This document shows positions 36,962 to 39,293 of a DNA stretch of 64,000 nucleotides, piece after piece. The first letter of the stretch is position 1. The number at the start of each line of letters is the position of its first letter. The notes below the pieces were generated by a model. It worked only from the letters and a program-made list of their open reading frames with translations, searched no databases and was not told the origin of the DNA. The position numbers and the translations under genes were made by a program. The DNA is from an uncultured Gammaproteobacteria bacterium (lineage in GTDB: Bacteria > Patescibacteriota > Patescibacteriia > Magasanikbacterales > UBA922). The stretch is from positions 546,709 to 610,708 of the forward strand of contig OZ246405.1 of the NCBI GenBank assembly GCA_965231005.1, given 5' to 3'.

Positions 36962-37089
36962 AAACACAACATTAAAAACTCTCCCTGGCAACAGGGTGAG
37001 TTTTGTTTTACCCAGGTTTGCTCTTGACTTTTTCCTAAGATTTCTATATTATGAGTGGCGTATTCCTATAATGTGATAATGATCAATAT

Positions 37090-37163
37090 GCGCGCATAGC
37101 TCAGTTGGTTAGAGCGCCACATTGACATTGTGGAGGTCTCTGGTTCAAATCCAGATGTGCGCA
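37090..37163 (+). tRNA. tRNA-Val (anticodon GAC)
   Basis: Cloverleaf read by eye. The acceptor stem is GCGCGCA/TGTGCGC (one G-U pair). The D arm is gctc-agttggtta-gagc. The anticodon stem ccaca/tgtgg carries loop ttGACat. The T arm is tctgg-ttcaaat-ccaga. The discriminator is A, and no CCA is encoded. Confidence 0.8.
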
Positions 37164-37370
37164 CATGACACATTGACTCAGTTTCCGCCAAAGGCGGACC
37201 AGCCTTTGGCTGGGGTTAGAGCGCCACATTGACATTGTGGAGGTCAGTGGTTCAAATCCAGATGTGCGCACATGACACATTGACTCAGTTTCCGCCAAAG
37301 GCGGACCAGCCTTTGGCTGGGGTTAGAGCGCCACATTGACATTGTGGAGGTCTCTGGTTCAAATCCACTA
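37107..37370. repeat. 107-bp tandem direct repeat (about 2.5 copies) composed of the 3' 57 nt of tRNA-Val plus a 50-nt spacer with two hairpins
   Basis: ggttagagcgccacattgacattgtggaggtc.c.ggttcaaatccagatgtgcgcacatgacacattgactcagtttccgccaaaggcggaccagcctttggctgg repeats with starts at 37107, 37214 and 37321. The third copy diverges after ggttcaaatcca. Copies 2 and 3 lack the 5' acceptor and D arm, so they are tRNA fragments. Confidence 0.75.
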
Positions 37371-37391
37371 GCGGTCACGAAATATATTAAA

Positions 37392-37465
37392 GGGCGATTA
37401 GCTCAGTTGGTTAGAGCGCTACACTGATAATGTAGAGGTCCCAGGTTCAAATCCTGGATCGCCCA
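37392..37465 (+). tRNA. tRNA-Ile (anticodon GAU)
   Basis: The acceptor stem is GGGCGAT/ATCGCCC. The D arm is gctc-agttggtta-gagc. The anticodon stem ctaca/tgtag carries loop ctGATaa. The T arm is ccagg-ttcaaat-cctgg. The discriminator is A. Confidence 0.85.
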
Positions 37466-37471
37466 CATAGG

Positions 37472-37499
37472 ATCCGTCAGACTGACGGGTCTTTTTTTT
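37472..37499 (+). terminator. Intrinsic terminator after the tRNA cluster
   Basis: The near-perfect palindrome gatccgtcag a ctgacgggtc is followed by tttttttt. Confidence 0.55.
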
Positions 37500-37637
37500 A
37501 TCTGCGACCTTGACAAAATAACCATTTTATGATAGTATCAACTGTCTCATCGTAACAAGAGATAAGTCTTACTGCCGTAGCTCCCTGGATATACCGCGCG
37601 ATTTTAACCCGCGTGCGGCGTACCAGGGAGGTACACA

Positions 37638-37835
37638 ATGGTCGGGAGACTACTCTATGTTTTGAGCGTCATAGCCTTCTTGCTCAGCGCTTTCGTTGCT
37701 GGATTGGATTTCATCGAGAAACAACCAGTTGGATTGAACGCGATCTACTTCTCAATTTCATCAGTCGTACTCGGCATCCACGCCCTATACCTGAATCATG
37801 CAGAGGAGCGTGAAGAGTCGACACGAGAAGGCTAA
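37638..37835 (+). CDS. Small membrane protein (65 aa) on a GC-rich island
   Basis: RBS gggagg, 7 nt upstream. A single TM helix (LLYVLSVIAFLLSAFVAGL) plus a second hydrophobic stretch. GC-rich codon usage unlike the flanks. Confidence 0.45.
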   Translation: MVGRLLYVLSVIAFLLSAFVAGLDFIEKQPVGLNAIYFSISSVVLGIHALYLNHAEEREESTREG

Positions 37836-38110
37836 GACATAGCCCGAACCTCGCACTAGCTGCGACGATGTTCCCCAAATCTCGGGAGCTACATCGCGCT
37901 TGCGGGATTCGGGAAACATTGAAAGAACATCTGATAGTAAGGTGTTTTTTTGATTTCCAACATTGACAAAACGAAAAAAATACTATTAGATACAACCATT
38001 GCCGACGGTCGGCAGTGTCCTTTTTACCTCCATGTGCTGAATGAATTGTCTGCTTGCAGAAAGGTCATTCCGCAGCGCTGCACGCCTTTATGGTCTGCAG
38101 GGAGTTTCTC

Positions 38111-39061
38111 ATGAATACTATCTCTCCAAAAGAGATCTTTGCACACCAACACATCCGTGGTGGATGGTTTTGGGTGCTTGTCATCCTCCTCGTCATCGCT
38201 GGGGCTGCCTGGCTTCACTGGGCCTACGTCCTCCCTGGCCTAAACAATCCCTTCGAGTATCCTGCGGCAATCATCTGGATCGAGTTCGCCCTGTTCTTCC
38301 TGTGGTATGCTTTTTCCAGAGTGAATCACACATTCCTCGATACGGTCTGGCCGTTCAAGTTCTTTGGCGACTACAATCGTCTGAACATTGTCGGTTACAG
38401 ACTGGTTCATTGCATGAGTGGTGATGGTGACTACAGTACCATCCTCGTCAGTAACGAGGACTGGAAAGAAAAGCAAAATAGGCGCTTGATTTTTCCAGAG
38501 CGTACACGTTTGGCACTGGTTGTGCCGCTCGGTGGATGGTTCAGCGGTGATGTTGAACTGTACGTGCACAAGGATGCTGTATATGAACTGTGCAAACCAT
38601 GGGTAGGAACGTTCCATTGTCCACATCCTGCGACTCGTGTGCTGCTGCACAAGTTCCATCTCAGTTTTCACAGCAGTGATATTCGGGGTGGAAGGGGTCT
38701 GTTTCCAAAGGTGACAACGCCAGTCGATATTCAAGATCTGCTCAAGCTCTTGAATCGTGAAGAGACCATGTCATCGATGCGAACTCTCATGGACAGGAAC
38801 CTGCTCGCGCTCTGCCGACATCTGGCAACGCTGCGCAAGCTGGATATCACAGAACCCCGGAGTCTTGCACTCAACGGCTGCATCGCAACAATGTGGCTGG
38901 CTGTTGGACAACTCGACAACAGGGATAAAATGGGTCGATCACCTGGCGCTGGTGCTATCAAGATCAACATTCTCAAAGAGCTTCGCGCTCTCGGTGAACT
39001 CAAGCCTGGAGAGCACGACAAGTTCATCCGTCTTCTGGAACAAGCTGACAAGGCTGCGTAA
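38111..39061 (+). CDS. Hypothetical membrane-anchored protein (about 316 aa) on a GC-rich island
   Basis: The ATG at 38111 follows ggag. The ORF track's 38054 start lacks an RBS. It has N-terminal TM helices (WFWVLVILLVIAGAAWL, AAIIWIEFALFFLWYAF) and a soluble C-terminal domain with no recognised motif. G+C is much higher than in neighbouring genes. Confidence 0.55.
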   Translation: MNTISPKEIFAHQHIRGGWFWVLVILLVIAGAAWLHWAYVLPGLNNPFEYPAAIIWIEFALFFLWYAFSRVNHTFLDTVWPFKFFGDYNRLNIVGYRLVHCMSGDGDYSTILVSNEDWKEKQNRRLIFPERTRLALVVPLGGWFSGDVELYVHKDAVYELCKPWVGTFHCPHPATRVLLHKFHLSFHSSDIRGGRGLFPKVTTPVDIQDLLKLLNREETMSSMRTLMDRNLLALCRHLATLRKLDITEPRSLALNGCIATMWLAVGQLDNRDKMGRSPGAGAIKINILKELRALGELKPGEHDKFIRLLEQADKAA

Positions 39062-39191
39062 AAACAAAAACACCAAGGAGAACAAACTCCGATCCAAACA
39101 AATGTGTGCCCTTTGGGTTTCGCTGCTGCAAGGTTCGGAGGGTTACAAAAGAACACCAGATTATGGTGTTTTTTTGATCCATTTTTACATA

Positions 39192-39220
39192 TTGACAAGA
39201 CACAACTTTTTCGCTATACT
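39192..39220 (+). promoter_or_regulatory. Sigma70-like promoter for lepB
   Basis: ttgaca (39192..39197), a 17-nt spacer, then tatact (39215..39220). Confidence 0.5.
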
Positions 39221-39293
39221 CACCACCATTAGTTTGAAGTGCATACCTATTTGGTGTATACTACAATTGATATTTCTCAGGTATCCTGTTTTT

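Follow-up and report, generated by a model that had tools for sequence, protein, structure and literature searches.

Hairpin-interrupted pseudo-copies of a second tRNA-Val allele in a tRNA operon of Candidatus Magasanikbacteria

Extra copies of tRNA sequence beside an intact tRNA gene are found in several described systems. In E. coli, according to work reportedly published by Egan and Landy in 1978 and by Rossi et al. in 1981, a 178-bp unit occurs about three times downstream of the tRNA-Tyr gene of tyrT, and each unit is said to carry the last 19 nucleotides of the tRNA (rtT RNA). The attL/attR duplications of prophages, integrative and conjugative elements and islands consist of an intact tRNA followed by a dead copy with the displaced resident 3' end; exchange takes place within the T arm, and relatives hold an empty site. 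Among the known sources of tRNA gene fragments, mobile-element integration is the most frequent, and the known fragments stem from kilobase-scale elements or CRISPR spacers (bioRxiv 10.1101/2022.07.05.498093). In the tRNA gene cluster of phages T4 and T6, the free-standing GIY-YIG homing endonuclease SegB recognizes a T-loop motif, cuts the 3' parts of tRNA genes and co-converts the tRNA region (PMC2330249), and it drives recombination-dependent, unstable segmental amplification (PMC13096335). Here we describe a tandem array between the tRNA-Val and tRNA-Ile genes of Candidatus Magasanikbacteria, a lineage of the candidate phyla radiation (CPR). The array lies in a 64,000-nucleotide stretch (hereafter the window) of core chromosome from the 1.23-Mb contig OZ246405.1.

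The array is probably what remains of a recent event in which another allele took the place of the resident tRNA-Val gene, the losing allele being kept as hairpin-interrupted pseudo-copies that were then duplicated by unequal recombination. Comparison with relatives shows that the resident allele (B type), once located a few bases upstream of tRNA-Ile, persists only as full-length pseudo-copies interrupted in their D loops, and that the A-type allele directly upstream is the sole gene of the array predicted to be a functional tRNA-Val. Like the tyrT repeats, the array comprises tandem units that follow an intact tRNA gene and repeat the 3' sequence of its tRNA, are co-transcribed with it and appear to have recombined unequally. 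Unlike the tyrT repeats, the units are entire pseudo-tRNAs that derive from a second allele and contain an inserted hairpin module, include no small open reading frame (ORF), and do not match RtT RNA (RF00391) at the gathering threshold or at E values up to 5.

The repeat unit and the second tRNA-Val allele

An earlier note on this DNA, made from its sequence, had described a 107-nucleotide repeat with copies starting at 37107, 37214 and 37321. Tandem Repeats Finder recovers a single array spanning 37107-37367, in which 2.4 copies of period 107 match at 97% without indels (score 508), and a repeat search finds the same three starts, with identities of 100, 98 and 65% over 107 nucleotides. The sole difference between copies 1 and 2 is at unit positions 33-34, where TC becomes AG. 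Copy 3, as the note had observed, diverges in the T arm, departing from the unit at position 48 inside the 3' strand of the T stem.

The note had further divided the unit into 57 nucleotides of tRNA 3' half and a 50-nucleotide spacer, and this division does not hold. The supposed spacer consists, in order, of CAT, GACACATTGACTCAGTT, a 30-nucleotide block and GGTTAGAGC, and the CTCAGTT just 5' of the block belongs to the D stem and D loop, where GGTTAGAGC ordinarily follows it directly. Homology to the tRNA extends 5' of the unit start given in the note, and when the 30-nucleotide block and a 3-nucleotide spacer are removed, the copies are exactly of tRNA length and collinear with tRNA-Val. The repeats therefore do re-copy the tRNA, but each unit holds a pseudo-tRNA of full length whose D loop has received an insertion, and is made up of 74 nucleotides of tRNA-Val copy, 3 of spacer and 30 of double hairpin.

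All genes and pseudo-copies of the array are on the forward strand: tRNA-Val (37090-37163), CAT, psiVal-1 (37167-37270), CAT, psiVal-2 (37274-37377), 14 nucleotides, and tRNA-Ile (37392-37465). ARAGORN calls tRNA-Val(GAC) at 37090-37164, tRNA-Ile(GAT) at 37392-37466 and, falsely, a weak 71-nucleotide "tRNA-Val" at 37308-37378. The two real, intact tRNAs score 71.6 (Val) and 78.1 (Ile) bits with the Rfam model RF00005. The intact A-type tRNA-Val has an acceptor stem of GCGCGCA/TGTGCGC, a T stem of TCTGG/CCAGA and four fully paired stems.

Each pseudo-copy begins with the 5' part GACACATTGACTCAGTT, followed by the D-loop insertion. In psiVal-1 the core is followed by a B-type 5' strand of the T stem and an A-type 3' end, and in psiVal-2 by an A-type 5' strand and a B-type 3' end. 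With RF00005, psiVal-1 scores 22 bits and psiVal-2 scores 25, below the gathering score of 29. The acceptor stem retains one of seven pairs in psiVal-1 and four of seven in psiVal-2, and in both, the T stem retains three of five and the D stem three of four, while the anticodon arm is intact (5/5). Judged by these model scores and broken stems, both pseudo-copies are dead as tRNAs, as the earlier note had thought.

The inserted block carries the two small GC hairpins that the note had pointed out. They abut, as TCCGCC-AAA-GGCGGA (TCCGCCAAAGGCGGA) and CCAGCC-TTT-GGCTGG (CCAGCCTTTGGCTGG), and the block occurs at 37184-37213, between D-loop positions 17 and 18 of psiVal-1, and again at 37291-37320, in the D loop of psiVal-2; neither copy is assigned a strand. 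These two occurrences in the window compare with 0.00 expected in shuffled sequences. No target-site duplication is present at the D-loop insertion site. GACC at the end of hairpin 1 was considered as a relic of a B-type 5' end and dropped, because the true 5' part (GACACATTGACTCAGTT) sits upstream of the insertion. Insertion of a reverse-transcribed tRNA was also dropped, since CAT and not CCA follows the copies. The 12-nucleotide sequence ATGTGCGCACAT, formed by the tRNA 3' end and the spacer, is a perfect palindrome present at 37155-37166 and 37262-37273, and in the predicted fold of the operon transcript its two copies pair with each other and disturb the tRNA-Val cloverleaf.

The existence of the B-type allele was predicted from the window alone, and such an allele was later found in relatives. 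The AGTGG of psiVal-1 exactly complements the CCACT of psiVal-2, and the tail AGCGGTC is unable to pair with GCGCGCA, the 5' strand of the intact gene. These two observations led to the prediction of a second allele with the sequence GACCGCT...AGTGG TTCAAAT CCACT AGCGGTC A. Syntenic loci, in which a gene for a KH protein precedes tRNA-Val and tRNA-Ile, were then retrieved from relatives by means of the KH protein. Four of these loci (L088-L091) have one intact tRNA-Val with exactly the predicted sequence, 4 nucleotides before tRNA-Ile. Another (L093) has a B-type gene whose core is identical to that of the window, followed by an AT-rich spacer and the same tRNA-Ile start, at which point the contig ends within tRNA-Ile. 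L084 ends in a B-type 5' half, and L086 has one intact A-type gene, identical at 75 of 75 positions to the functional gene of the window and free of the repeat. The B type is thus seen in at least three lineages and the A type in one other. The earlier note had proposed to compare occupied with empty sites, and the loci L093 and L088-L091, with a single intact B-type tRNA-Val directly before tRNA-Ile, are such empty sites.

The B-type sequences of the array match these intact genes closely. The AG at 37246-37247, a relic of the B-type 5' strand AGTGG and complementary to the CCACT of psiVal-2, is identical to the intact genes of L093 and L088. The displaced 3' end of the resident gene, CTAGCGGTCA (37368-37377: end of the T stem, acceptor 3' strand and discriminator), together with the following C at 37378, gives CTAGCGGTCAC, which is identical at all 11 positions to the 3' end of the intact gene in L093 and L088-L091. 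With its insertion removed, psiVal-2 agrees with the L093 gene at 68 of 75 positions. None of the 13 diagnostic B positions has changed, and this absence of decay speaks for a recent event. Upstream, the promoter-proximal sequence TATATTATGAGTGGCGTATTC is common to the window and L093. A sharp left junction 24 nucleotides upstream of the intact gene was considered and dropped, since no two relatives agree in the promoter-distal part of the leader. When viral contigs were scanned with exact patterns for the source of the 50-nucleotide "trailer" and the A-type 3' end, nothing was found, and the sole Joint Genome Institute (JGI) metagenome match, L092, was dropped as a donor because it is an unrelated tRNA-Val(CAC) locus.

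The T arms form a mosaic of the two alleles. If each arm is written as 5' strand and 3' strand around the loop, with P for A type and B for B type, the intact gene is P-P', psiVal-1 is B-P' and psiVal-2 is P-B'. The two pseudo-copies are therefore reciprocal hybrids (AGTGG..CCAGA and TCTGG..CCACT), and both switch points between A and B fall within the 13-bp block TGGTTCAAATCCA, which comprises the T loop and 3 bp on each side.

A shorter form of the array is found in two independent k=127 assemblies (L001 and L002), which share 99.95% identity with the window along 8.3 kb except that exactly one 107-nucleotide unit is missing. These contigs retain P-P' followed by P-B', so that psiVal-2 is present and psiVal-1 is absent. 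Their stretch of TC, 106 nucleotides and TC does not exist in the three-unit allele of the window, which makes a real polymorphism likelier than a collapsed repeat. The copy number of the array thus probably varies in the population.

Hairpin insertions in other genomes

By sequence and pairing, the 30-nucleotide double hairpin is a widespread family shared by CPR chromosomes, where it interrupts loops of tRNA fragments in four lineages besides that of the window, and uncultivated viral contigs, where it lies between genes. Abutting double hairpins other than terminators are very rare in about 650 kb of CPR sequence. In addition to the D-loop sites of the window, CPR members comprise T-loop insertions in L026, L064, L011 and L012, together with one plain intergenic copy in L026. 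The insertions in L026 and L064 are at the same position, GGTTC^...^GA(A/G)TCC, and in L011 and L012 the first hairpin is identical to that of the window.

A degenerate pattern revealed 26 further sites in uncultivated viral contigs from IMG/VR (L099-L124), most of which have a low GC content. Their consensus is TCCGCC-N3-GGCGGA / (T/C)CAGCC-N3-GGCTG(A/G), as for example in L101 (11619-11648), L103 (2398-2427) and L110 (4944-4973). The pattern leaves the three outer pairs of hairpin 2 free, yet these are perfectly complementary at 15 of the 26 sites, with five types of pairs that include the CCA/TGG of the window (P ~5e-21, given a chance of 1/64 per site). In the low-GC viral contigs examined, the module mostly occupies short stretches that separate co-directional genes, and it may point either way; it is often just before a ribosome-binding site and sometimes occurs twice per contig. 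No tRNA or GIY-YIG gene was found near it in these contigs, and an obligate link to such genes, considered for the viral contigs, was rejected. The module has no match in cultured phage genomes or in plasmids, where hits span the tRNA core only. A transposon or miniature inverted-repeat transposable element (MITE) is not indicated, as a perfect flanking direct repeat is present at only one of ten viral sites.

REP, BIME and REPIN sequences are short palindromic extragenic elements that occur in many copies per genome and are associated with a RAYT transposase, which resembles those of IS200/IS605. The 30-nucleotide module is likewise composed of two short GC-rich palindromes located between co-directional genes in either orientation, with stems that are conserved or compensated and loops that are free to vary. 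However, it is found at a single, duplicated site in the 64-kb window, shows a marked preference for the loops of tRNA fragments in CPR chromosomes and lacks a consistent target duplication. Also, no RAYT-type transposase turned up among the window ORFs scanned, and no search aimed at RAYT was made beyond the window. Archaeal tRNA genes with non-canonical introns in the D or T loop similarly have a short structured insert within a tRNA loop. In contrast, the host here is a bacterium, and an archaeal-type intron was dropped because the acceptor, D and T stems of the host copies are broken, so that removal of the insert gives no tRNA; a bulge-helix-bulge motif is not evident, although no search was aimed at one.

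Partial copies of the neighbouring tRNA are present in about one third of the tRNA-bearing loci of relatives, a figure that discounts redundant assemblies and hits consisting only of self-matching ARAGORN calls shorter than 72 nucleotides. Wherever such a copy was inspected closely, GC hairpins either split one of its loops or take its place. Two tandem arrays, with units of 93 and 86 nucleotides, flank tRNA-Ile in L094 (1691-2330) and, in the same form, in L095. The upstream array has 2.1 copies of the 93-nucleotide unit, in which tRNA positions 1-13, a 32-nucleotide hairpin, tRNA positions 14-25 and a leader follow one another, and the downstream array has 2.2 copies of the 86-nucleotide unit, composed of a hairpin-split T arm and 3' end. 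The tRNA-Pro loci L011 and L012 have different intact alleles and share a hairpin-split T-arm fragment with an L011-type 3' acceptor, which repeats the pattern of the window, in that an allele was replaced and a fragment kept.

In three relatives, such arrays enclose genes. L020 (648-1326) has tRNA-Ile followed by two 302-nucleotide units, each composed of a GIY-YIG ORF and a 3' part that begins within the D loop and is modified by a hairpin. In L014 (4541-5304), two units of 5' part, hairpin and GIY-YIG ORF precede an intact tRNA-Ile, and in L029 (4566-4968), tRNA-Val is followed by a GIY-YIG ORF and a hairpin-modified 3' part. These ORFs match the Pfam family PF01541 with E values from 1e-12 to 6e-15. 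They are stand-alone genes of 86-100 amino acids that start 3-5 nucleotides past a tRNA 3' end, without a promoter or Shine-Dalgarno sequence, and a hairpin-modified partial copy of that tRNA precedes or follows each of them, often as a tandem pair. In L020 the last codons of the ORF overlap the D-loop-like sequence GTGGTTAGAGC, and the hairpin CTCGCCTAGGCGAG is common to L014 and L020.

Other hairpin types adjoin or interrupt partial tRNAs as well. A second, longer type, found as CCCCGTAAACGGATACTTCGTATCCGTCACGGGG in L094 and CCACGTAAACAAACTTCGTTTGTCACGTGG in L098, keeps its outer stem, AA/C internal loop and TTCG loop, and its inner stem is compensated. A third type, CCCGCCCGAACGAC...GTCGGGCGGG, is located in the D-arm region of a tRNA-like copy beside tRNA-Ile in L023 (4440-4520); it is also present on the reverse strand of the unrelated JGI contig L092 (1357-1429), where ARAGORN calls an odd tRNA-Val(CAC) 31 nucleotides after a normal one. 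In L008 (7700-7930), the intact gene is preceded by a partial tRNA-Ile whose anticodon loop holds an insertion of about 120 nucleotides.

Proposed origin and alternatives

Allele replacement followed by unequal recombination could have produced the array in three steps. First, an A-type gene would have recombined into the locus to give the A gene followed by a pseudo-copy with a B-type T arm and B-type 3' end; the A gene might have arrived on donor DNA that also carried a hairpin-bearing pseudo-copy, or it might have become linked to a resident gene that the hairpin had entered beforehand. Second, from this form (the A gene and a B-B' pseudo-copy), unequal exchange in the T-loop block and a short conversion would yield the order (P-P')(B-P')(P-B'), as might a single exchange between this form and a P-B' form. 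Third, a further unequal crossover in the 79 nucleotides that are identical between the pseudo-copies would drop one unit and leave the allele with one pseudo-copy.

The initiating break may have been made by a nuclease that targets tRNA genes, perhaps of the small GIY-YIG type. This part of the proposal is more weakly held; it is suggested by the relatives that bear such genes inside equivalent arrays and by the precedent of SegB. The window resembles the SegB system in that exchange points fall in the T-loop block, an allele was apparently replaced, copy number appears variable and arrays of relatives hold GIY-YIG ORFs. It differs in being a bacterial chromosome, and tblastn with three GIY-YIG proteins of relatives found nothing below an E value of 0.8 in the whole window. 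Furthermore, the proteins of the relatives, at 86-100 amino acids, consist of the catalytic domain only, and their likeness to SegB is at the level of the Pfam domain.

Several observations weigh against this proposal. A GIY-YIG gene is absent from the window and from the hairpin-bearing viral contigs. The relatives with empty sites are related at the genus or family level only (their SMC proteins are about 65% identical), which leaves parsimony as the basis for the ancestral state. The 5' 17 nucleotides of the pseudo-copies agree with the B type at only 12 positions, whereas the remaining 58 nucleotides are perfect, and the 5' part may thus be of other origin. Neither viral contigs nor JGI metagenome contigs yielded a donor of the A-type gene with this trailer, and the direction and route of transfer are consequently inferred. 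Two exchanges within the 13-bp block are no great improbability under ordinary recombination, since random placement along the 47-bp core that the alleles share gives a chance of roughly 0.08; they lend weak support to a break directed to the T loop. The AG of psiVal-1 is known from a single assembly, the contigs with one pseudo-copy could reflect assembly collapse, and the non-functionality of the pseudo-copies as RNAs is a prediction only.

It is conceivable, although we regard it as unlikely, that the array belongs, without an ORF of its own, to a hitherto undescribed class of minute selfish elements that target the loops of tRNA genes in CPR bacteria. Such elements would enter at the D, anticodon or T loop and would bring or restore a working tRNA allele so that the host survives, leaving the resident gene as hairpin-capped fragments. 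Some forms would have a stand-alone GIY-YIG gene expressed from the tRNA transcript, and others would be bare double hairpins moved in trans. The 30-nucleotide hairpin of the phage contigs would be the vehicle or recognition structure of such elements.

Perhaps the units are instead kept for a role as RNA, either as modules that process, insulate or stabilize the polycistronic tRNA transcript or as decoys for factors that bind tRNA. This can coexist with origin by allele replacement, but we consider it improbable. The units do lie inside the transcription unit with intact anticodon arms, and their hairpins are predicted to form (z of -2.2 for the hairpins and -5.0 for the whole operon). Moreover, the hairpin-interrupted T-arm fragment hardly differs between L011 and L012, although the spacer beside it has diverged, and in viral contigs the module sits directly upstream of ribosome-binding sites. 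However, copy number appears to vary within the population, relatives manage without the units, the stems that define a tRNA are broken and palindromy could be maintained at the level of DNA. Also, a search of Rfam with the repeat, the hairpins and the GC-rich segment described below found no family above threshold.

A decidedly improbable alternative is that the two alleles are ancient tandem paralogues, with an A-type tRNA-Val(GAC) followed by a B-type gene in the ancestor, one or the other lost in relatives, and the B-type gene inactivated by the hairpin and partly duplicated in the window. Consistent with this alternative, the locus is occupied by the A allele in one relative (L086) and by the B allele in others (L093, L088-L091 and L084), and the full-length pseudo-copies are arranged head to tail with the intact gene, 3 nucleotides apart. 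Yet no examined locus has an intact pair of A and B, the alternative calls for a minimum of four or five precise losses that happened independently, and the undecayed diagnostic positions are not expected of an old pseudogene.

The earlier note had favoured repeated rounds of site-specific integration and excision with a tRNA gene as the att site. In this model, a tyrosine integrase would leave tandem att scars of an element that carried a tRNA-Val 3' segment and later decayed or was excised. The model is partly supported in its topology: the orphan 3' end is of the resident type and distal to the intact gene, as at attR, the reciprocal hybrid T arms of copies 2 and 3 are those that strand exchange in the T loop would yield, and relatives have empty sites. 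Mobile-element integration is moreover the commonest known source of tRNA fragments, as cited above. The mechanism itself is not supported, and we judge the model very improbable. A Pfam scan of the 20 mid-sized ORFs of the window found no integrase, recombinase or transposase, in agreement with the note, which had seen no integrase. Neither a kilobase-scale element nor any cargo is present, since each 107-nucleotide unit lacks an ORF and comprises a tRNA-length copy plus 30 nucleotides, the "spacer" being itself tRNA 5' sequence and insertion. A crossover at an att site would have kept the resident 5' half, whereas the 5' acceptor strand of the intact gene is the A-type GCGCGCA and not the resident GACCGCT. 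Finally, tandem integration should give the order (B-P'),(P-P'),(P-B'), and the order seen is (P-P'),(B-P'),(P-B').

Two explanations are scarcely credible. Plain duplication of one tRNA-Val gene in situ by slippage, with random decay and no second allele or foreign DNA, would account for repeats that are tandem and nearly identical, but it appears effectively refuted, because the 2-nucleotide change of psiVal-1 and the 11-nucleotide tail of psiVal-2 exactly match the functional allele of relatives and are mutually complementary, and because the 30-nucleotide insert belongs to an external family. Spurious expansion or collapse during assembly is suggested by the proneness of tandem repeats to error and by the disagreement of independent short-read assemblies on copy number, but the intact A gene and a hairpin-bearing pseudo-copy with a B-type tail are present in three assemblies (window, L001 and L002), the AG variant is not one that an assembler could invent and lies 14 nucleotides from the diagnostic 3' end, hence within single reads, and the three-unit allele does not contain the stretch from TC to TC in the k=127 contigs.

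The operon, its neighbours and the meaning of the array

The array is bracketed by a single promoter and a single terminator, which makes tRNA-Val, psiVal-1, psiVal-2 and tRNA-Ile one transcription unit. The promoter-like site is a sigma-70-like motif, TTGACT-17-TATTAT, on the forward strand at 37024-37052. The intrinsic terminator, also on the forward strand (37469-37500), consists of an 11-bp stem (37469-37493) and a T run. The pseudo-copies would be co-transcribed with both tRNAs and are most likely thrown away in processing. The genes for SMC, S16, a Tudor-like protein and the KH protein precede the tRNAs, those for LepB, HisS, S21 and YqeY follow, and more distant neighbours include the genes for ClpP, YbeY, FtsA, FtsZ and NrdR.

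The GC-rich island that the earlier note had placed after tRNA-Ile is present at 37500-39180 (about 51% GC compared with 35%), between tRNA-Ile and lepB. It is, from its content and its distribution among relatives, a separate lineage-specific insertion of two orphan ORFs, and no tRNA-Ile repeat is found at its far end. The ORFs encode a membrane-like protein of 65 amino acids (37638-37835) and a protein of 316 amino acids (38111-39061), and each has its own TTGACA promoter and terminator. Neither has a Pfam or PHROG match, and the 316-amino-acid protein has no homologue but itself among 5.8 billion proteins. In L088-L091 and the P0003 contig, lepB directly follows the tRNAs, and L086 has a different insertion at this spot (asnB, a glycosyltransferase and UDPG dehydrogenase). 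Similar terminator-promoter junctions, GGTnTTTTTTT..ATTGACAA, bound both cassettes of the island at 37469-37540, 37925-38000 and 39146-39222, and L088 has a single ancestral junction. This suggests that the cassettes were inserted at, and duplicated, the joint between terminator and promoter. The 65-amino-acid ORF has a 5' leader (37577-37640) with an extended hairpin, CTCCCTGG...CCAGGGAG, which is predicted to sequester the GGGAGG ribosome-binding site, and a 14-nucleotide inverted repeat flanks the ORF (in the 37577-37640 region and at 37879-37892). The ORF with its leader hairpin is reminiscent of type I toxin-like genes for small membrane proteins.

Pseudo-copies of this kind have a practical consequence, since they can be miscalled as tRNA genes, as in one ARAGORN call here. 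If allele replacement is the correct explanation, the locus is a clean, datable tRNA allele swap in which the loser is readable beside the winner and the copy number is probably still varying. The literature searched yielded no account of hairpin-interrupted tRNA fragments that stand beside intact tRNAs in several CPR lineages and sometimes enclose small GIY-YIG genes, nor of a conserved 30-nucleotide double hairpin common to CPR chromosomes and uncultivated viral contigs. Should both patterns share one mechanism, they would represent a chromosomal counterpart of the SegB-type homing and amplification of phage tRNA clusters. Because the tRNA sets of CPR bacteria are minimal and mostly single-copy, breaking and rebuilding a tRNA gene in these organisms touches an essential function.

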